From sequence record NC_129898.1: a stretch of DNA of 64,000 nt, one strand, 5' to 3'. The stretch is from a phage. Each line of letters opens with the position of its first letter. Position 1 is the stretch's first letter. Below, one piece after another: positions 4,174 through 31,561 of this stretch. The notes below the pieces were generated by a model. That model worked only from the letters and a program-made list of their open reading frames with translations, was not told the origin of the DNA and did no database searches. The translations under genes were made by a program, and so were the position numbers.

Positions 4174-4647
4174 TTAGTCAACCTGAACCCAACCGCCTGC
4201 TACCTTTTTAAACATTCTTTGGTTATCACTGCCTCGGAATGGTTTCTTGGTTGGTAAATCTTTTACATACTTTCCATCAATGACGATATCAGCCAGTTTA
4301 AGAACATCACTAGAGATATGCTCAAATGTGAACCCAGTATACACAAGAATAGTTTTCTTGTCACCAAACTTTTCCTTAATTCTCCTCATAAGGTTGATAA
4401 TATCTGGCTCATTATAAGTAGCCAAAGGCTCTCCACCAAGTAAAGAAATACCGCATACAGATTCATTGTCTAAATCCAACAAAATTTTCTGCAAATCTTC
4501 TTCGGTGAACTCTCTTCCTTTATCTTTTGACCAAAATGCTTGATTAAAGCAACTGGGACAAGCGTGTGGGCACCCAGATACCCACAAAGCTGTCCTAATA
4601 CCTGGCCCCTCGGTGTAAGATATCTCTGTATACCCGACAATATTCAT
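4174..4647 (-). CDS. nrdG: anaerobic ribonucleotide reductase activating protein (radical SAM)
   Basis: 'GCPHACPSC' CxxxCxxC cluster; N-terminus aligns with NrdG when started at the ATG at 4647 rather than the track start at 4665. Confidence 0.8.
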   Translation of the reverse strand: MNIVGYTEISYTEGPGIRTALWVSGCPHACPSCFNQAFWSKDKGREFTEEDLQKILLDLDNESVCGISLLGGEPLATYNEPDIINLMRRIKEKFGDKKTILVYTGFTFEHISSDVLKLADIVIDGKYVKDLPTKKPFRGSDNQRMFKKVAGGWVQVD

Positions 4648-4760
4648 ACATACTCCGCATCGCATTTAGGACAATGCCAAATAAAATCGTCCAGTGCCTT
4701 ACACCAACGAAGATTGCAATGACAACCACACTTGCAAATTTTATAAATACCTGTAGACAT
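4644..4760 (-). CDS. small cysteine-rich (zinc-ribbon-like) protein, 38 aa
   Basis: Own translation MSTGIYKICKCGCHCNLRWCKALDDFIWHCPKCDAEYV; AGGAGGTG RBS; stop overlaps the nrdG ATG (ATGA); not in the track. Confidence 0.35.
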   Translation of the reverse strand: MSTGIYKICKCGCHCNLRWCKALDDFIWHCPKCDAEYV

Positions 4761-21918: not shown

Positions 21919-23202
21919 CTATTCCAGAACATCCCAAGTGTCTGGATTAACATTTCGGACGCAGATACCGACAGGGAATTGGTAGTTGTTGTCTTCTGTC
22001 CTTGCTTGATATTTAAAGGTGACAAACTTGCCGATCATTTCCTGCATCCTGCTATAGCTACGCTCCTCGTGCGTGCCTTTCATCTTCATTTTAACAACGA
22101 TGCCTTCCTTGTCAACGCAGATAAGAACACCCTCATCATTCTTATCTTTCTCAACGTCAATAACTTTCACCTCTGCGTCGTTGAACTTTTTCCATTTCAA
22201 TGCTTCAGATGTTCGCTGACCGTATTCGTATTTACCACAGAAGTTACGCATGATAGTACCTTCATACCCTTCGGACATGAATACACCAACAGATTCTTCG
22301 CAATGATCAACTGTGTACGCAATCTCTGCGTCAACAACCTTGATATGGTCAAGCATCAGAGTGGTAATGGTATCTTCTGCATCCATAAGATCCTTGCAGC
22401 GTCCAGACTCTGTTTCTGGATCCCACCACACCTTGTCACTAGGGATATCAAAAATGTGATACTCTAAGTCATAGCTACAGTACCCTCCGTAACGCAAATC
22501 ATCACGAACAGGCTCAACATCAACAGGAATATCTACCTTATTGAAGTTTTTGTATGTTGATAAGCCTGCCTTAATTGCGGCATGACGGCGTTTTTTATCT
22601 GCCTCGTAGTCTTTATCGATCTCGGCCTGAATCTCTTCCTGTGTGCGCCACCGTTTAGCAAGAGACACTATTTTCTGCAGAGGCAGACCATGAATATAGA
22701 TCTCTCCGTCGAGCTGTTTAATCCCGGTGGTGAAGTGGAAAGAACGAAGTTGCTCCAGAAGCTTTCCTTGAATAGGGTAGGACTTATTACCACGGGAAAT
22801 AAATTTAGGCTCCCCATTTTGGAAAACAACAAGTAGACGAAGGCCATCTAACTTACGCAAGATCCAGCAAGGTAATTTAAGTGCCTTTCCACGCTTCAGG
22901 TAGTCATGCACCAGCATGGGTAAAAGGTCAACGCCCTGCTCGCAATCTTCCATATTTTCAACATACCCCAGACGGACTTGTTTTTCCCACTTACTGATCG
23001 CTTCCAGCTCAGCCTGTTGCTCAGCTGTAGTTTCATTGGCACGACCAACGTTCTTAGGTGTGCAGATCGTCTCTTTGTATTGCAGTTTACCGTCAAGCTT
23101 GCCAAACTCTACGATAACCTTATCACCATCCGTGAATACTTTCCACTGTTGGTAGCTGCCATCTTTGTTCAGTGCGTACAGTGTTGTTTTGATCTGATGC
23201 AT
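21919..23202 (-). CDS. DNA ligase
   Basis: Adenylation motif I 'RKLDGLRL' and downstream 'SEGYEGTIMR'. Confidence 0.75.
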   Translation of the reverse strand: MHQIKTTLYALNKDGSYQQWKVFTDGDKVIVEFGKLDGKLQYKETICTPKNVGRANETTAEQQAELEAISKWEKQVRLGYVENMEDCEQGVDLLPMLVHDYLKRGKALKLPCWILRKLDGLRLLVVFQNGEPKFISRGNKSYPIQGKLLEQLRSFHFTTGIKQLDGEIYIHGLPLQKIVSLAKRWRTQEEIQAEIDKDYEADKKRRHAAIKAGLSTYKNFNKVDIPVDVEPVRDDLRYGGYCSYDLEYHIFDIPSDKVWWDPETESGRCKDLMDAEDTITTLMLDHIKVVDAEIAYTVDHCEESVGVFMSEGYEGTIMRNFCGKYEYGQRTSEALKWKKFNDAEVKVIDVEKDKNDEGVLICVDKEGIVVKMKMKGTHEERSYSRMQEMIGKFVTFKYQARTEDNNYQFPVGICVRNVNPDTWDVLE

Positions 23203-23471
23203 TACTCAGCCTCTTCCTTAAAAATTTTAAACATCTCTTCTTTGCTCATTACCAACCAGTCTCCCATAAAGTCAACTAACCAATCCCCTTGGTACAAGAC
23301 AAGGTTACCAAACGGCTCGACAAGCTCGCACATGCGAAGAATATCTCTGGTTCGAACAGGTGACGATGTAAACACACCTGTATCAATCCACCGTTGCAGA
23401 TCAGATACTGATGAAGAGCTTCCGTCAAACTGGTGTGCCTCTACAGGTTTAGCAAGATTAAATAACGGCAT
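23202..23471 (-). CDS. hypothetical protein
   Basis: 89-aa ORF. Confidence 0.4.
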   Translation of the reverse strand: MPLFNLAKPVEAHQFDGSSSSVSDLQRWIDTGVFTSSPVRTRDILRMCELVEPFGNLVLYQGDWLVDFMGDWLVMSKEEMFKIFKEEAE

Positions 23472-23766
23472 TGCAGTCCTCCTTCTCTAATAGGTCTTTT
23501 ATCGGGTAAACAAGCAGGTGCGGATCGTAATAACTTATAGTCTTATTCTGCCACACTATGAACTTAATTACAACTAAATTTACCACATCTTTATCCCCAT
23601 GTAGTCCAACACACAAATTTGTCCATATTTTGTGGTTGAATACTTTGCTGTCGATGTAGATCTTAGTGTCAAACTTATCCTCTATCCTACCTATAAGTTT
23701 AACCAATTCTTTCATCTGATCACCAAACACAGCATCGTTTTCAAGATCTCTGGAGTGCTTGTACAT
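23458..23766 (-). CDS. hypothetical protein
   Basis: 102-aa ORF. Confidence 0.4.
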   Translation of the reverse strand: MYKHSRDLENDAVFGDQMKELVKLIGRIEDKFDTKIYIDSKVFNHKIWTNLCVGLHGDKDVVNLVVIKFIVWQNKTISYYDPHLLVYPIKDLLEKEDCNAVI

Positions 23767-23830
23767 AACTTTCTACCTCACTTGCATACTTTCCGAAACA
23801 AGTAAAGCCGGGATCGCCCCGGCTATGTTA

Positions 23831-24544
23831 TTAAATATATTCTGTTACATCCTTGAAGCTCGAAGGCTTCATAATCTTACCTTTACTGTCGAGGAATATG
23901 ATAACTTTATTTCCGTTGTAGAATTCTTCTTTAGCAACAAAACCTTCATAGCGACCATCAAAGCGTCGCTCAAGATCTTTAATCTCCAACTCGATGAGTT
24001 GTTCAGCAGGCATATCTGCACTGGCACCGTGTGAATACCGCAGATGGTTGACGCGTGCAAACTTGCTGTCATTAGATTTTAGAACCTTCCGCATCATCCC
24101 GCACACATCACCGCGAAGCTGGAACAGCAAAGCTGTTGACAACTCTGCTAAGCGGTAAGCAGACGCTCTTTGCTTAGAGGTATTTTTCGCAGCGATCAGT
24201 GTATCATAAAATTCACCGATCTTAAACTTAAGACCTCGCGGATTATCAAACAGGTTTGACCACTTTTCATGGTTATCGTTAACAAGATAAGCGGCATAAC
24301 TTGTGACAACGTGAAGATCGCAGGCCTCTTTTAGGAGATGATCCCCACCATCACCTTTCTCCAACTCTTCCAAAACTTCATTGAACTCTTCCTCAATGAA
24401 ACTCAGCTGAAGTTCGAATGGTGTGTATGATTTTTTCACTTTAGCTGCTACACGGTTCCAATTTTCCACCCAGTTGGCAGACCAAAGGTAGTTTTCAGGC
24501 TGAGACAGTTTTTCCAGGTTGTCGATCAGTTTAGTATTCAGCAT
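23831..24544 (-). CDS. putative MazG-like nucleotide pyrophosphohydrolase
   Basis: Acidic 'EEEFNEVLEELEKGD...LKEACDLH' pattern resembles the MazG EExxE..D motif; weak. Confidence 0.35.
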   Translation of the reverse strand: MLNTKLIDNLEKLSQPENYLWSANWVENWNRVAAKVKKSYTPFELQLSFIEEEFNEVLEELEKGDGGDHLLKEACDLHVVTSYAAYLVNDNHEKWSNLFDNPRGLKFKIGEFYDTLIAAKNTSKQRASAYRLAELSTALLFQLRGDVCGMMRKVLKSNDSKFARVNHLRYSHGASADMPAEQLIELEIKDLERRFDGRYEGFVAKEEFYNGNKVIIFLDSKGKIMKPSSFKDVTEYI

Positions 24545-24558
24545 TAAAAGGCCTCCGC

Positions 24559-25320
24559 TTACAGTTCCATAAAGTTTTCTACGATGTCAATGAATGTTTT
24601 ATCAGAGAAAGCGTCAACCGCCCCGTTAAACCAAACTGGGATGCCGCGATCCTCATACTGGTAAATGTCACTACGTGAAATGCCATTCTCCCCTAAATGC
24701 TGTGAGTCGTATTTGTTAACGATCAGTAGTTTAGTCCCCTTATTACAGGCAGGGAATAGCTCCCAGTTAAAATTGATAACTGTGTTGGAGCACCCTACAA
24801 GGATAACCATATCATTGCTCGTCAGAGAAGTCAACAGGTCATACATGTCTACATACTTTGGAGCTACTTCTCCGAAGAACACTACATTAGGCTTGACCCA
24901 AGTATACTCGCTTGCATCTACCTCAGAGTATCCAATGTCTTTAATGACGTCATTCCCTTCATCATCCTCGTAGACTATTTCTGGCAAATATCCGTGGACA
25001 TGTAAAATATCTTCATGTTTTACACCAGCACGCTCCAGCAAATCATCTACATTGGTGGTCAGGTTGATCACACGACCAGACCAGCGGGAATACCATTCAG
25101 CTATCCGGAGATGTGCAAGGTTAGGATCAACACTGCCCAGAGCTACACGCCGTGCATTATAAAAGTCATGCACCTTATAGTAGTTCTTGGCAAAGGTGTG
25201 GATGTTACACACCTCATCGATGCTGAAATTCTCCCACATTGCAGTGCCACCAGATCGGAAAGTTGGGATACCAGATTCAGCGCTCAAACCAGCACCGGAG
25301 ATAATGATCAGTCGTCGCAT
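24559..25320 (-). CDS. Sir2-family (sirtuin-like) NAD-dependent enzyme
   Basis: 'ISGAGLSAESGIPTFR', 'TTNVDDL', catalytic 'HVHGY', 'VFFGE' and 'LVGCSN' sirtuin motifs; no zinc-ribbon cysteines. Confidence 0.8.
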   Translation of the reverse strand: MRRLIIISGAGLSAESGIPTFRSGGTAMWENFSIDEVCNIHTFAKNYYKVHDFYNARRVALGSVDPNLAHLRIAEWYSRWSGRVINLTTNVDDLLERAGVKHEDILHVHGYLPEIVYEDDEGNDVIKDIGYSEVDASEYTWVKPNVVFFGEVAPKYVDMYDLLTSLTSNDMVILVGCSNTVINFNWELFPACNKGTKLLIVNKYDSQHLGENGISRSDIYQYEDRGIPVWFNGAVDAFSDKTFIDIVENFMEL

Positions 25321-25328
25321 AAGTGTCC

Positions 25329-25679
25329 TCAGTAGATGTTTTGTTTAATTTCTATTCCAAACTTTTTAAACGAGTCAGCAGCAAGCATGAATTTACGAGC
25401 CGCTGATGGGTTAGAAGTATGCACGAAAATCTTCACGTTGTCAACTACAGGAGGCTTACCAAATACAAATTTTTCCTCCAGTATGCAGAAGCAATCGTAT
25501 CCTTCAAAAATTTCTCCCAAGTCGCTGTCAAAATGCCACTCAGAAACGCGTCTATATAGCTTTCCCTTGTCATTAATGAAATCCATGAACTCAGAAGAAC
25601 TCTTTAGCCAAAGAGCGTCTGGGAGCCCATAATTTGACGGATCTCTCAAATCATCTAGCCACACAATCAGCTTCTTCAT
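25329..25679 (-). CDS. hypothetical protein
   Basis: 116-aa ORF; its ATG overlaps the RNA ligase stop (ATGA). Confidence 0.45.
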   Translation of the reverse strand: MKKLIVWLDDLRDPSNYGLPDALWLKSSSEFMDFINDKGKLYRRVSEWHFDSDLGEIFEGYDCFCILEEKFVFGKPPVVDNVKIFVHTSNPSAARKFMLAADSFKKFGIEIKQNIY

Positions 25680-26611
25680 TGCATATAGTCCTCGTTGTGG
25701 AAATAGCAGTCAAGTATCTCACGGCGTTCCTGCTCCAGGAGGCAATTCCACACATCTTCTGTGTAGTTTCTACGAATGAAGTTTACCATGCCGTAAAACT
25801 CTTCGTCAACACGTTTAAAGATATCATCATCCCAAATCTTCCAAGCTCTACCCCTCATTACGACCTTCCGTGCCAGATAGTAGGGAGACTTGATCTTTAG
25901 TTGCAGGTCATAAGGGTAGTAAGGCTTACGGATCATATACCCTTCGCCCCTTGTTTCTGCAGCCAACTCTTTTGCATAGCTGAACGGAATTTCACGCACA
26001 GTGTGAGGACGTTTTGCACCAAGGTATTTGGCAATACCGTCTAAAGCTGCTTCTGGTAGCATTATTCCAGAATCATTGTATCGGCAACCGATCAAATAGG
26101 CACCATGATCTTCCTGAACAATATGCGGGTCTGAAGGGTGACAAATTTCAAACATGAATGTCATGTTTTCATGGCCCATAACCTTCTTGATAAGATCTAA
26201 ATTACCACATTGCTCCTGGATTGTTTCCTTTGCGAGGTTACAATATGGAGAATCAAGAGACCCTGTTGTTGAGAACAACAGTTCACCTTTGTGAGATGAT
26301 ACCACACCAAGGAATCCGTTCTTTTTCTCTACCGCCGTCACAAGTTTATTGTCAGGCAGGTTGGTGGAATTTTCTCCCAAGTTAAACACTTTTGTGAAGG
26401 GCCATGCCACAACATTTCCTTCATTACCGACAACAATTCCTCGGCACTCTAGTAAACGCGGAGACAAATGCCATAGATTGTTGTAAAATACTTTTCTGGC
26501 ATATTTATAGATCTTTAACCCAAGATCTGGATAATACCGACTGGTTACAAGACCTTTATTCACTAAATCATCTGCATTAAAATACTTCATCATACATTCC
26601 TCGTTTGTCAT
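25676..26611 (-). CDS. RNA ligase (Rnl1-like)
   Basis: N-terminal 'LLECRGIVV' matches the T4 RnlA 'ALECRGIMF' region; 'EKKNGFLG' nucleotidyltransferase motif I variant. Confidence 0.6.
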   Translation of the reverse strand: MTNEECMMKYFNADDLVNKGLVTSRYYPDLGLKIYKYARKVFYNNLWHLSPRLLECRGIVVGNEGNVVAWPFTKVFNLGENSTNLPDNKLVTAVEKKNGFLGVVSSHKGELLFSTTGSLDSPYCNLAKETIQEQCGNLDLIKKVMGHENMTFMFEICHPSDPHIVQEDHGAYLIGCRYNDSGIMLPEAALDGIAKYLGAKRPHTVREIPFSYAKELAAETRGEGYMIRKPYYPYDLQLKIKSPYYLARKVVMRGRAWKIWDDDIFKRVDEEFYGMVNFIRRNYTEDVWNCLLEQERREILDCYFHNEDYMQ

Positions 26612-26654
26612 TTTGTCACTCTATCTTGCCACACAAATAAACTAGTGTCAACAC

Positions 26655-26683
26655 TTGAAATGAACAAAAGAGTTATGTATACT
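26655..26683 (+). promoter_or_regulatory. sigma70-like promoter (TTGAAA-17-TATACT)
   Basis: Hexamers with 17-nt spacer about 30 nt before the kinase gene. Confidence 0.4.
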
Positions 26684-26711
26684 ACCATTAAAATTAAAAC
26701 GGAGGATTACT

Positions 26712-27122
26712 ATGTCTAAAATGCTATATATCGTGCGTGGTCTACCAGGTTCTGGCAAATCAACACTGGCAAATGCACTATCTTTAGAGGGGCTGTACCC
26801 ACATTTTGAGAACGACATGTTCTGGTACGACGACGATGGAAATTACAACTGGGATGCAAGTAAAGTAACACTTGCAGCAAAATGGTGCAAAGATAACGTA
26901 GAAGATATGATGCGTATGGGATACGACCGTGTCGTGGTAAGTAATACGTTTACAAAAGAAAAACATGTGCAAGAATATGTTGACATGGCAATCAGTCATG
27001 GGTATAGTTATACTGTGATCGTGGTTGAAAACCGCCACGGTAATAAGAGCATTCATGATGTTCCAGATAGGGTTGTGGACCGTATGGAGCGTGAGCTTAA
27101 AAACTGCATTAAACTAAAATGA
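26712..27122 (+). CDS. polynucleotide 5'-kinase (P-loop)
   Basis: 'YIVRGLPGSGKSTLA' Walker A and 'VVVSNTF' resembling the T4 Pnk kinase domain. Confidence 0.6.
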   Translation: MSKMLYIVRGLPGSGKSTLANALSLEGLYPHFENDMFWYDDDGNYNWDASKVTLAAKWCKDNVEDMMRMGYDRVVVSNTFTKEKHVQEYVDMAISHGYSYTVIVVENRHGNKSIHDVPDRVVDRMERELKNCIKLK

Positions 27123-27129
27123 GGGATGT

Positions 27130-27684
27130 ATGAAATATTTTGTAACAAGCGATACACACTTTCTCCACCAGCGAGTCATGGAGTTTGATTCATGTCAAAA
27201 ACACAGATCTCAGTATGATCACAATCTTGACAGTATGAACGAAGGAATCATTGCAGAGTGGAACTCTGTTGTATCACCAGAAGACACTGTGTTTCACTTG
27301 GGCGATATTGCATGCACTAAGGATAAGAATATCAACAACTTATTTCCAGATATTCTAAATATGTTGAACGGACATATTATTCTTGTTCGTGGTAACCATG
27401 ACACAAGGACGACTGTCAGAATTATGAAAGAGTTCGGTAATGAGGTTGTAGATTATTACGAGCTTCGCCACAACAAGAATTTGATCTGTATGAGCCATTA
27501 CCAGTTTGCAAAGTGGAACAGAAAGCCTCACGGATCAGTCCAACTGTTCGGTCATGCTCACGGAACCACACAGCAGTTGTTTGGCAGGCAGTTTGATGTC
27601 GGTTGGGATGTGTGGGGGAGACTCTTACCATTAGAAGAGGCATACCGTATTGCAATGAGTCTTGCTATTGACAGCGGGGAGTAA
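27130..27684 (+). CDS. calcineurin-like metallophosphoesterase
   Basis: 'VTSDTHF', 'HLGDIA' and 'VRGNHD' metal-binding motifs. Confidence 0.8.
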   Translation: MKYFVTSDTHFLHQRVMEFDSCQKHRSQYDHNLDSMNEGIIAEWNSVVSPEDTVFHLGDIACTKDKNINNLFPDILNMLNGHIILVRGNHDTRTTVRIMKEFGNEVVDYYELRHNKNLICMSHYQFAKWNRKPHGSVQLFGHAHGTTQQLFGRQFDVGWDVWGRLLPLEEAYRIAMSLAIDSGE

Positions 27685-27731: not shown

Positions 27732-28082
27732 ATGAAAGAGGAGGATAAGCTGCCATACCTTAAAGTCCCATTTGGAATACTGTCTATGTCAAAAGTTTTG
27801 AATGATACAACTGGAGAGGTTGTTGTTCTTGACTTGTATGACAAGATCGTATACTGCTACCTGCACAACTGGTATAAGCTTGGAGGAAATTCACGCTTCA
27901 CACCCAGCACAAGGAAAATTGCAGCAGATGTTGGGATAAAGAAAACAAAAGCAGCAGCGTGCGTTAAAACTTTAGAATGTGCAGGAGTGGTTGAAATATC
28001 CACACAAGGGAGAGGTAAAAGATGCACATTTTCCAAAGTTTTGCCACCAGAAGAGGTTATTCGAATGTCAACAACTGGTTAG
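27732..28082 (+). CDS. putative winged-helix DNA-binding protein
   Basis: 'STRKIAADVGIKKTKAAACVKTLECAGVVEI' has an HTH-like pattern; immediately upstream of the iteron array. Confidence 0.45.
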   Translation: MKEEDKLPYLKVPFGILSMSKVLNDTTGEVVVLDLYDKIVYCYLHNWYKLGGNSRFTPSTRKIAADVGIKKTKAAACVKTLECAGVVEISTQGRGKRCTFSKVLPPEEVIRMSTTG

Positions 28083-28156
28083 ACCAGTAAAAACTTAAAT
28101 ATCTGTACTATAAGGATTCGTATGTTTTATGTCCATCCAAGAGCAGAGGGTAGTAA

Positions 28157-28238
28157 CTGTCCGTGATACGGACACTACTGTCCGTCACGCGGACACATCT
28201 GCCCGTAATACGGACACTAACTGTCCGCAATACGGACA
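28157..28238. repeat. four tandem 18-bp palindromic iterons (CTGTCCGT-NNN-ACGGACA)
   Basis: Copies at 28157-28174, 28178-28195, 28199-28216 and 28221-28238, spaced 21-22 bp start to start. Confidence 0.85.
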
Positions 28239-28380
28239 CATAAAGAATATAACTAAAATAACTAAATAATAAAAAAAAATAAAAGATCTAGTAATTATGG
28301 TACTAAAGTACATATACTTAACTTATGTAGAATATACTAGATCCTAAGTACCATGTTTTAAATTTATTACTTACTATTGG

Positions 28381-30622: not shown

Positions 30623-30697
30623 GCCCTGTTAGCTTAGTGGATAAAGCAGCGGCCTTCTAAGCCGTTGACACTGGTTCGAGTCCAGTACGGGGTGCCA
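30623..30697 (+). tRNA. tRNA-Arg (anticodon TCT)
   Basis: Hand-folded cloverleaf: acceptor GCCCTGT/ACGGGGT, anticodon loop CTTCTAA, T-loop GGTTCGAGTCC, encoded CCA. Confidence 0.75.
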
Positions 30698-30827
30698 AGT
30701 TCTTTTTAATGTAGCTTACTTTAGCAGAGTAAATCTTCGGCAAGTGGCGGTAACCACTTTACCGATACCTCATAGTTAGTGGTGAGAACACTAGCTATTT
30801 TAAAAAGAATTTAAATATTAGTATTTA

Positions 30828-30915
30828 GGTGAGTTAATTCCGTAGGGGTAGCGGGGCAGACTGTAAATCTGTTATCATTGCGATTCGGGTGGTTCGACTC
30901 CATCACTCACCACCA
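30828..30915 (+). tRNA. tRNA-Tyr (anticodon GTA)
   Basis: Acceptor GGTGAGT/ACTCACC, anticodon arm CAGACTGTAAATCTG as in E. coli tRNA-Tyr, long variable arm, encoded CCA. Confidence 0.8.
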
Positions 30916-31029
30916 AATTTATATTTTTAAATGCATAAATCATACAGATAATGGCATTGATATTTATCGTCGTTTATACTAGTCACTAACTGCTCGAAAA
31001 TCAGTGTCATTATCAGTATTGTTTATAAA

Positions 31030-31120
31030 AGAGGGTAGGGAGCAATGGTGCTCAAGCGGTCTTGAAAACCGTCCCGTTGAGGATGACTCGATGATGGTTC
31101 GATTCCATTATCCTCTGCCA
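31030..31120 (+). tRNA. tRNA-Ser (anticodon TGA)
   Basis: Acceptor AGAGGGT/ATCCTCT, anticodon loop CTTGAAA, 20-nt variable arm, T-loop GGTTCGATTCC, encoded CCA. Confidence 0.75.
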
Positions 31121-31218
31121 TATTGTTGACCTTGTAATTAAGCGAAAGCCGGAAGCAGAACCGGATTATCAAATGTTACAGTCGTCATCGCCGACTAGCC
31201 ACATGGTCAACATATTGC

Positions 31219-31315
31219 GCTAGGTAAGCCCTTTGGCAAGGGCGAGGATTTTTAATCCTGAAAATAGACGAGGTAGTCGTTGAATACATAGATGGTTCGA
31301 TTCCATCACCTAGCA
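31219..31315 (+). tRNA. tRNA-Lys-like (anticodon TTT) with atypically long variable region
   Basis: Acceptor GCTAGGT/ACCTAGC and anticodon arm GAGGA-TTTTTAA-TCCTG are canonical, but about 30 nt separate the anticodon stem from the T arm and CCA is not fully encoded. Confidence 0.4.
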
Positions 31316-31321
31316 CCTTTT

Positions 31322-31397
31322 GCTGATGTAGCACAATTGGCAGTGCAATTGATTTGTAATCAATAGGTTGCAGGTTCAAGTCCTGCCATCAGCACCA
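31322..31397 (+). tRNA. tRNA-Thr (anticodon TGT)
   Basis: Acceptor GCTGATG/CATCAGC, anticodon arm ATTGA-TTTGTAA-TCAAT, T-loop GGTTCAAGTCC, encoded CCA. Confidence 0.85.
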
Positions 31398-31398
31398 T

Positions 31399-31473
31399 GG
31401 CCCTGTAGCTGGAAGGTTCAAGCAAGCGACTCATAATCGCCAGACGGTGGTTCAATTCCACCCAGGGCCACCA
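31399..31473 (+). tRNA. tRNA-Met or tRNA-Ile2 (anticodon CAT)
   Basis: Acceptor GGCCCTG/CAGGGCC, anticodon loop CTCATAA, T-loop GGTTCAATTCC, encoded CCA. Confidence 0.75.
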
Positions 31474-31484
31474 AATTATAAATA

Positions 31485-31561
31485 CTCCGCGTAGCTCAGC
31501 TTGGTAGAGCGCCTGATTTGGGATCAGGAGGTCGAGTGTTCGAATCACTCCGTGGAGACCA
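31485..31561 (+). tRNA. tRNA-Pro (anticodon TGG)
   Basis: Acceptor CTCCGCG/CGTGGAG, anticodon arm CCTGA-TTTGGGA-TCAGG, T-loop GTGTTCGAATCAC, encoded CCA. Confidence 0.8.

Follow-up and report, generated by a model that had tools for sequence, protein, structure and literature searches.

What a sirtuin contributes to a phage operon that is headed by an RNA ligase is the question raised by one locus of a 64,000-nucleotide (nt) stretch of phage DNA (sequence record NC_129898.1; this whole stretch is referred to as “the window”), which comes from an rV5/FV3-like Escherichia coli myovirus (Vequintavirus). A reading made from the letters alone (the sequence-only reading) had placed there a Sir2-family enzyme between a 116-amino-acid (aa) protein and a MazG-like protein, and had suggested an anti-defence or host-takeover function dependent on nicotinamide adenine dinucleotide (NAD). 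The answer favoured here, with a probability of roughly 45%, is that the sirtuin, the 116-aa protein (a cREC domain protein) and the MazG-like protein make up the NAD-linked arm of a six-gene RNA-repair module, whose RNA would most likely be transfer RNA (tRNA). This answer is held tentatively, because everything beyond domain identity and gene linkage, all of the enzymatic activities and the RNA substrate included, is inferred, and several observations are contrary.

The locus is already known for this phage genus, with a function that is a computational prediction. Iyer, Burroughs, Anantharaman and Aravind (Viruses 2022, 14:1977, section 3.7.3; PMC9503650) described a sirtuin-centred, NAD+-utilising RNA-repair neighbourhood, their type 2, with Escherichia phage V5 (rV5) and Proteus phage Mydo as prototypes, and listed as its parts a sirtuin, a T4-like tRNA ligase, cREC, a nucleotide kinase, MazG and a calcineurin-like phosphoesterase. 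In their scheme the sirtuin is predicted to be KptA/Tpt1-like, removing 2'-phosphates from RNA with NAD+, and for cREC and other phosphoesterases there are two options, production of the 2'-phosphate or processing of an ADP-ribose cyclic phosphate formed as by-product (PMC9503650); the cREC domain itself had been defined in 2021 by the same group (PMC7824862). The component list of the window is identical and the phage genus is the same, with no material difference, so that the window represents another isolate of the prototype group and the locus, an ordinary member of a neighbourhood already described for Vequintavirus, is not novel. The published description consists of comparative genomics only. 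The repair mechanism weighed below is thus the prediction of Iyer et al. (2022); several checks fit it and none contradicts it.

The six components lie adjacent to one another inside 23831-27684 of the window, and the same six-component set is present in FV3 and HMD-6. Four of the genes form a head-to-tail unit on the minus strand in the list of open reading frames (ORFs), in the order Rnl1-type ligase, cREC, Sir2 and MazG-like; the gene order and the span 25679-23831 given by the sequence-only reading agree exactly with that list. The features are:

25676..26611, minus strand: Rnl1-type (T4 RnlA-like) ATP-dependent RNA ligase, 311 aa, by Pfam and PHROG; first gene of the unit
25329..25679, minus strand: cREC domain protein, 116 aa, by Pfam PF20274; second gene
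24559..25320, minus strand: Sir2-family enzyme, 253 aa, by Pfam SIR2 and phrog_2162; third gene
23831..24544, minus strand: MazG-like protein of the all-alpha NTP-pyrophosphohydrolase superfamily, 237 aa; last gene of the unit
23806..23824, minus strand: intrinsic-terminator-like hairpin, AGCCGGGGCGATCCCGGCT then TTACTTGTTT, by consensus scan and sequence reading
26712..27122, plus strand: P-loop kinase, 136 aa, probable polynucleotide 5'-kinase, by Pfam AAA_33, phrog_2071 and phrog_505
27130..27684, plus strand: calcineurin-like metallophosphoesterase, 184 aa, with a probable role in RNA 3'-end healing, by Pfam and phrog_547

In the proposed pathway, the Rnl1-type ligase, the P-loop kinase and the metallophosphoesterase would heal and seal RNA breaks with 2',3'-cyclic-phosphate and 5'-OH ends, which are the ends left by host anticodon nucleases and toxins. 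The sirtuin would use NAD+ to take a phosphate off the RNA, namely the 2'-phosphate left at or beside the junction; cREC would open cyclic phosphates, either on the RNA end (making the 2'-phosphate substrate), on the ADP-ribose by-product, or on both; and the MazG-like enzyme would split the pyrophosphate of the by-product to adenosine monophosphate, as a Nudix enzyme would do in the jumbo-phage version. Established mechanisms make such RNA-phosphate chemistry by a sirtuin plausible. In sirtuins and Tpt1 alike, nicotinamide is lost from NAD when an oxygen nucleophile attacks C1'', after which the 2''-OH of ADP-ribose attacks the acyl carbon (sirtuins) or phosphorus (Tpt1). Moreover, the recurrent combination of a sirtuin with a pyrophosphatase (MazG or Nudix) and a phosphoesterase (cREC, 2H or HAD) is consistent with a by-product bearing a pyrophosphate as well as a cyclic phosphate.

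The sirtuin and its clade

The 253-aa ORF has Pfam SIR2 (PF02146) as its sole Pfam match (E=1.7e-26, 93.7 bits against a cutoff of 24) and also matches phrog_2162 (E=3e-108). The sirtuin motifs that the sequence-only reading had called complete are all found in the translation, namely GAGLSAESGIPTFR at residue 9 (9-22), TTNVDDL at 88 (88-94), HVHG at 107 (107-110), FFGE at 148 (148-151) and LVGCS at 174 (174-178). Across alignments of 51-54 diverse homologs, G9, A10, G11, S16, F21, R22, N90, D92, H109, G110, F149, E151, G176, S178 and N202 are invariant, and the protein possesses every element by which the Sir2 family is recognised: the NAD-binding Rossmann core, the catalytic His-Gly, FGE, GxS and the adenine-ribose Asn. 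It almost certainly uses NAD. The statement that a zinc-ribbon cysteine set is missing also stands, because C38, C177 and C192 are the only cysteines present, with none between H109-G110 and F149-G-E; in this segment E. coli CobB has four cysteines, against 0-1 in 116 of the 123 sequences compared. The Cys4 zinc ribbon of canonical sirtuins is structural and not catalytic, and the AlphaFold model of the phage protein (predicted local distance difference test score of 90.6) keeps beta strands (E110-118 and E124-128) in the zinc-ribbon region.

The best Foldseek matches in the PDB are E. coli CobB (6rxm/1s5p), Archaeoglobus Sir2-Af1 and human SIRT5; the TM-scores, which vary with normalisation, are about 0.65-0.85. 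A sequence search retrieves CobB (1s5p) and SIRT5 at E values of about 3e-21. Identity to the CobB of the E. coli host reaches 32% across 187 aa. The NCBIfam matches are deacylase models only, and the CobB deacylase models score the protein at 101-120 bits against cutoffs of 243-320 (120 against 243; 101 against 320). Judged by its sequence, the protein is not a CobB ortholog but a member of a phage clade that descends from class III (CobB/SIRT5-like) sirtuins. It shares with CobB and SIRT5 the GAG, FR, N-x-D, catalytic His, FGE and GxS motifs and the Y-x-x-R pair, the latter being Y54/R57, which align with CobB Y92/R95 and are conserved in 124 of 124 and 123 of 124 clade sequences, respectively. 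The differences are the lack of zinc cysteines, TTNVD in place of TQNID (in 123 of the 124 clade sequences), an extra C-terminal region and a clade-specific stretch after GxS, which reads GCSN.VINFNWELFP in the phage clade (V181, I182 and F184 invariant) against GTSGHVYPAAGF in CobB; this last change suggests an altered substrate cleft. The protein is strongly acidic (isoelectric point 4.7, net charge -16), with -8 in the segment that replaces the zinc ribbon, and the median isoelectric point of the clade is 5.1.

Three other identities were considered and rejected. In bacteria Sir2 domains often act as NAD-consuming effectors of defence systems, and the sequence-only reading had drawn an analogy to them; this analogy did not hold up, as no family among 5027 PADLOC defence models matched at E<=0.01, defence-type Sir2 proteins were not found among the top 50 PDB fold matches, and the fold matches are all CobB, SIRT5 or Sir2-Af1. 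Compared with ThsA, DSR1/2, SIR2-HerA and SIR2-APAZ, the likeness comprises the Rossmann fold, the NAD substrate and a place in phage-host conflict in a broad sense, whereas the phage protein has no detectable sequence relationship to them, is a single domain of 253 aa, has no sensor or partner (SLOG, HerA, pAgo or others) fused or adjacent to it, and is the product of a phage gene. The Macro-linked SirTM type was set aside after a Pfam scan of seven proteins of the cluster and its surroundings returned no Macro domain; no Macro is annotated anywhere in the FV3 genome either, and Iyer et al. describe the phage neighbourhood as being without a Macro partner (PMC9503650). Membership of the KptA/Tpt1 family was rejected because SIR2 is the sole Pfam match, so that any likeness to these enzymes would be functional and not familial.

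Putative repair partners and their distribution among phages

The 116-aa protein, which the sequence-only reading had left as unknown, can be named: it is cREC_REC (PF20274; E=2.3e-13, 51.1 bits against a cutoff of 27), a cyclic-phosphate-processing receiver domain. D9, D10, R12, D51, D53, H87 and N90 are invariant among 17 aligned homologs, which include the Nudix-cREC fusion of Serratia phage BF and a protein of Proteus phage Privateer. The conserved acidic residues D9, D10, D51 and D53 and a context of RNA repair and ADP-ribose, instead of histidine kinases, are those of the cREC_REC family. In several public phage records the 116-aa gene already carries the label cREC, and the 237-aa gene that of nucleotide pyrophosphohydrolase. 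By its four-helix core with an ExxE...ExxD metal-binding motif, and by a match to superfamily models or folds, the latter product belongs to the all-alpha nucleoside triphosphate (NTP) pyrophosphohydrolase superfamily (MazG/HisE/dimeric-dUTPase-like), and it carries in addition an uncharacterised C-terminal alpha/beta part. Its family matches PRA-PH and MazG, and no dUTPase family is among the matches listed.

The ligase matches Pfam RNA_lig_T4_1 (E=8e-15, 55.7 bits; cutoff 28.3) and phrog_562 (E=8e-66), with K96-K-N-G as candidate motif I. With 38 bits against the cutoff of 242 of the TIGR02308 equivalog, and about 25% identity to T4 RnlA, it is a distant Rnl1 relative and not a T4 RnlA ortholog. 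The kinase matches Pfam AAA_33 (E=5e-11), phrog_2071 (E=4e-58) and phrog_505, “polynucleotide kinase” (E=4e-10); the phosphoesterase matches Pfam Metallophos (E=1.6e-6), Metallophos_2 (E=3.6e-6) and phrog_547 (E=1.6e-52), and its orthologs adjoin the ligase in Mydovirus KNP2 and Vibrio phage Chester. PDB sequence searches with the ligase, the kinase and the profile of the MazG-like family gave no match to a solved structure. The proposal of the sequence-only reading that the Sir2 gene shares an operon with genes for an RNA ligase and for a protein like nucleotide pyrophosphohydrolases is supported.

Over positions 23000-27000 the window shares 98.6% identity with phage EPFV3-03/2025 and 98.0% with FV3, and 117 phage records cover 80% or more of this region. 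Searched with tblastn against 50,697 phage records, the sirtuin clade was found in 1005, among rV5-like, T5-like, phi92-like, Mydovirus and jumbo phages, the carriers being mostly rV5-, T5- and phi92-like phages of Escherichia, Salmonella and Klebsiella. Rnl1-like ligases were found in 1054 records, cREC in 357 and the MazG-like protein in 323, the genus breakdown of the last two being almost identical. MazG-like carriers are confined to related Vequintavirinae, Mydovirus and Stephanstirmvirinae-type phages; a distant relative, P0159, sits on a 2-kb contig with no informative context. About 20-25 records labelled “Campylobacter phage”, with C. jejuni as the stated host (MG065635, MG065652, MG065676, MG065682 and others), are 92-100% identical to E. 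coli Vequintavirus genes throughout the locus, and are likely to reflect host misattribution or contamination.

Mydovirus KNP2 has the same six genes on one strand over about 7 kb, rearranged in the order phosphoesterase, ligase, cREC, kinase, Sir2, DNA ligase and MazG-like, with the kinase ortholog standing between cREC and Sir2; thus, the linkage of the six genes survives rearrangement. In more distant carriers, other enzymes of phosphate and NAD chemistry appear beside the sirtuin. In a T5-like phage, a HAD_SAK_2 “Swiss-army-knife RNA repair” phosphatase (E=6e-18) lies about 370 bp 3' of Sir2, two small ORFs away, and neither ligase nor cREC was found within the 5-kb flanks of the sirtuin. 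In Serratia phage BF, a 2H/Acb1-like gene stands two genes 5' of Sir2, a Nudix-cREC fusion follows directly 3' (E=1e-24), and Nampt and NMNAT/ADP-ribose pyrophosphatase genes adjoin the cluster. The 2H-family gene of BF (4281-4727 of the stretch L004) also matches Pfam Acb1, an anti-CBASS phosphodiesterase (E=3.6e-15), and could be a cyclic-nucleotide eraser instead of, or besides, an RNA-end enzyme. The cREC gene is found as well in the T5-like Proteus phage Stubb, inside a tRNA array between tRNA-Met and tRNA-Gly (L015:4926-5273), and in phage Privateer, within about 2.5 kb downstream of RtcB.

Homologs of KptA, retrieved with the E. coli protein as query, occur in 98 phage records, almost all from jumbo phages of Erwinia, Dickeya and Klebsiella, and none of these 98 comes from the rV5/FV3-like group. 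The largely complementary distribution of KptA and the sirtuin agrees with functional equivalence. Around KptA in Erwinia phage RAY and in Klebsiella phage KpLz-2_45, a Pfam scan of the neighbouring genes gave no informative match. Ligase orthologs with about 43% identity are present in Pseudomonas phage phiPsa347 (L011) and Vibrio phage Chester (L012); in these two neighbourhoods neither sirtuin nor KptA was found beside the ligase, which is accompanied by a kinase, metallophosphoesterases, HD, Nudix, PRPP synthetase and Nampt, and by Macro in Chester. This is a second, sirtuin-free association of an Rnl1-like ligase with NAD and ADP-ribose genes. The FV3 genome annotation, for its part, holds no NAD salvage, dUTPase, KptA or Macro genes.

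Operon architecture and flanking features

The sequence-only reading had described the Sir2 gene as translationally coupled to the genes upstream. At the ligase/cREC junction the ligase stop and the cREC start overlap in ATGA, which makes true translational coupling plausible there. At the remaining two junctions the genes are close-packed without overlap, with gaps of 8 nt between cREC and Sir2 (containing a Shine-Dalgarno-like GAGGA) and of 14 nt between Sir2 and the MazG-like gene (with a Shine-Dalgarno-like GGAGG). The guanine-cytosine (GC)-rich hairpin with its T-run lies 7 nt after the stop codon of the MazG-like gene, and 23824..23806 is a probable end of the four-gene transcript, the site being a consensus match only, of a kind at least as common in shuffled sequence as in the region scanned. 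Ahead of the ligase gene, a TTGACA at about 26651-26646 on the minus strand had no good -10 partner in the scan, and no sigma-70 promoter is claimed. The kinase and phosphoesterase pair diverges from the ligase operon and shares with it a common intergenic region.

GC skew and coding strand both change sign at about 26600-26700, between the ligase operon and the kinase/phosphoesterase pair, and the cumulative GC skew has its minimum near 24-26 kb. Beyond the terminator-like hairpin, two conserved small ORFs of unassigned function, of 102 aa (phrog_7684) and 89 aa (phrog_14585), occupy 23202-23766 on the minus strand; they stand between the hairpin and an ATP-dependent DNA ligase, and the last base of the 89-aa ORF is the first base of the DNA-ligase start. 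On the other side of the module, four tandem repeats of 21-22 nt (TAACTGTCCGTGATACGGACAC and variants, each with a palindromic core GTCCG-N5-CGGAC) extend over 28154-28239, about 70 nt 3' of the ORF 27732-28082, which is called “replication initiation protein” in relatives; by their sequence, the repeats resemble an array of iterons or operators. A tRNA gene cluster, at a distance of about 3 kb from the repair module, spans 30623-31561, and ARAGORN and Rfam calls differ for several of its genes: 30828-30912 is called by Rfam only, 31030-31120 (tRNA-Ser) by ARAGORN only, and 31219-31317, of 97-99 nt, was given an “anticodon” of 4 nt and scores weakly with Rfam (37.5 bits). The discordant calls may represent degenerate or unusual tRNA genes.

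RNA repair weighed against other uses of NAD

The domain identities, the intact active-site residues, the operon structure and the recurrent association of the genes are what the analysis shows. A role in RNA repair is supported by the invariance of the catalytic residues of Sir2 and cREC across their respective clades, and by the tRNA and RNA-ligase contexts in which cREC occurs elsewhere, in the tRNA array of Stubb and beside the RtcB of Privateer. The logic would be like that of fungal and plant tRNA splicing and repair by Trl1 (a cyclic phosphodiesterase, a kinase and an Rnl1-clade ligase) and Tpt1/KptA, except that the phage proteins are separate polypeptides, that the proposed cyclic phosphodiesterase is the receiver-fold cREC and not a 2H enzyme, and that the proposed phosphotransferase is a sirtuin and not a protein of the ADP-ribosyltransferase fold. 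The Pnkp and Rnl1 of T4, which repair tRNA and so counter the anticodon nuclease PrrC, offer a second comparison, as in both cases a virulent E. coli phage encodes an Rnl1-family ligase, a P-loop 5'-kinase and a 3'-end phosphoesterase; in contrast to T4, kinase and phosphatase are separate genes here, the phosphatase belongs to the metallophosphoesterases, like that of Clostridium thermocellum Pnkp, and not to the HAD enzymes, and T4 has no sirtuin, cREC or MazG arm.

Several points weigh against this role. The protein looks, by sequence, like an ordinary class III deacylase that retains the acyl-pocket positions of CobB (A76 to C38, Y92 to Y54, R95 to R57, I131 to V91 and V187 to V146), and its strong acidity is unexpected for a stand-alone RNA-binding enzyme. 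The metallophosphoesterase could alone remove 2',3'-cyclic phosphates, leaving no 2'-phosphate to be taken off, and such removal is reported for CthPnkp and lambda phosphatase (PMC2190708). A KptA is already encoded by the E. coli host. No cREC was detected in about two thirds of the sirtuin records (1005 against 357), the genus breakdown suggests that few T5-like carriers have an Rnl1-type ligase, and in Phapecoctavirus about 25 kb separate the sirtuin from the ligase, cREC and MazG-like genes, which are mutually within about 5 kb. Many of the shared gene orders come from related myoviruses and could stem from common descent. Furthermore, Iyer et al. state that cREC is experimentally uncharacterised (PMC9503650), and our literature search, in which subscription journals were thinly covered, found no experiments on phage sirtuins, on cREC or on the T5 Sir2-like protein; what turned up on phage sirtuins and cREC was comparative genomics from one group.

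The main rival is a conventional lysine deacylase, in which a CobB-like phage deacetylase or desuccinylase would reset the acylation of host or phage proteins during infection and its place beside the RNA-repair genes would be mechanistically meaningless. Such a role is unlikely. The closest proteins in sequence and fold are indeed CobB, Sir2-Af1 and SIRT5, the NCBIfam matches are confined to deacylase models, 123-124 of the 124 clade members share the acyl-pocket residues and the class III Tyr/Arg pair, the acidity is like that of the CobB catalytic core, and many carriers either have no cREC and (by genus breakdown) no Rnl1-type ligase, or have the sirtuin far from them. Nonetheless, the scores fall far under all CobB equivalog cutoffs, the zinc ribbon has been lost clade-wide, TQNID has given way to TTNVD, and the stretch after GxS, unlike that of CobB, suggests that the substrate cleft has changed; the recurrent neighbours are cREC, HAD_SAK, 2H and Nudix, with no acyltransferase or protein-modification gene, and a CobB is already supplied by the host. 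Quite improbable, in turn, is an ADP-ribosyltransferase or NAD glycohydrolase employed for counter-defence or takeover, which would ADP-ribosylate either a nucleic-acid end or a host target such as a toxin or nuclease that cleaves tRNA, or would simply burn NAD+, leaving cREC and the MazG-like protein to clear the products. No target can be named for it, no likeness to the defence NADase Sir2 families was detected (no PADLOC match), the seven proteins scanned and the FV3 annotation are without Macro, and NAD depletion would be costly for the phage, FV3 having no annotated NAD salvage genes. It does have in its favour the intact NAD-binding and nicotinamide-cleavage residues, the ability of sirtuins to act as ADP-ribosyltransferases in conflict systems (Iyer et al.), and the Nampt and NMNAT genes beside that of BF, as expected for a heavy NAD consumer that recycles nicotinamide. 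A precedent exists as well in T4, whose Alt, ModA and ModB are phage ADP-ribosyltransferases that modify host proteins.

A last explanation, of similarly low probability, concerns the MazG-like protein, which would be a dUTPase-type or house-cleaning dNTP pyrophosphatase of nucleotide metabolism that stands beside the sirtuin only by inherited myovirus gene order. FV3 has ThyX and ribonucleotide reductases without an annotated dUTPase, a DNA ligase and replication genes come after the MazG-like gene, its carriers are all related phages, and in Mydovirus and Phapecoctavirus a distance of 3-5 kb separates it from cREC, and it does not adjoin Sir2. Against such an accident of ancestry, the family matches PRA-PH and MazG with no dUTPase among the matches listed, its distribution nearly equals that of cREC (323 and 357 records, with near-identical genus counts), the gene is tightly packed with Sir2 (the 14-nt gap) and followed by the terminator-like hairpin, and in jumbo phages the equivalent place is held by a Nudix pyrophosphatase fused to cREC. 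With RNA repair as the preferred reading, the sequence-only reading was right in spirit and is partly supported, as it had seen an NAD-using phage enzyme in an RNA-repair, counter-defence setting: the gene context is best read as counter-defence by repair of RNA after cleavage by host nucleases, whereas host takeover by NAD consumption finds no specific support.

The RNA-repair reading has a bolder form, which we regard as somewhat doubtful. The phage protein would be the first RNA-acting enzyme of the sirtuin fold, moving an RNA 2'-phosphate (or terminal phosphate) to NAD+, perhaps with the conserved class III Tyr/Arg anion pocket re-used for phosphate; together with cREC in place of a 2H cyclic phosphodiesterase and the MazG-like protein in place of Nudix, it would provide enterobacterial phages with a complete heal-and-seal pathway for tRNA, fungal-type and Tpt1-independent, directed against anticodon nucleases. 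As a genome-scan finding the locus adds nothing beyond the 2022 publication, and its value is as a pointer to the testable prediction that a sirtuin acts on RNA. If this is true, sirtuins would gain a nucleic-acid substrate, the cREC domain would get its first function, and phages of E. coli, Salmonella and Klebsiella would own an NAD-dependent means of undoing the cleavage of tRNA by host defences. Since the sirtuin clade is present in about 1000 of the 50,697 deposited phage records, and rV5-like and T5-like phages are commonly used therapeutically, such an activity would matter for host range and for which phages are chosen in therapy.

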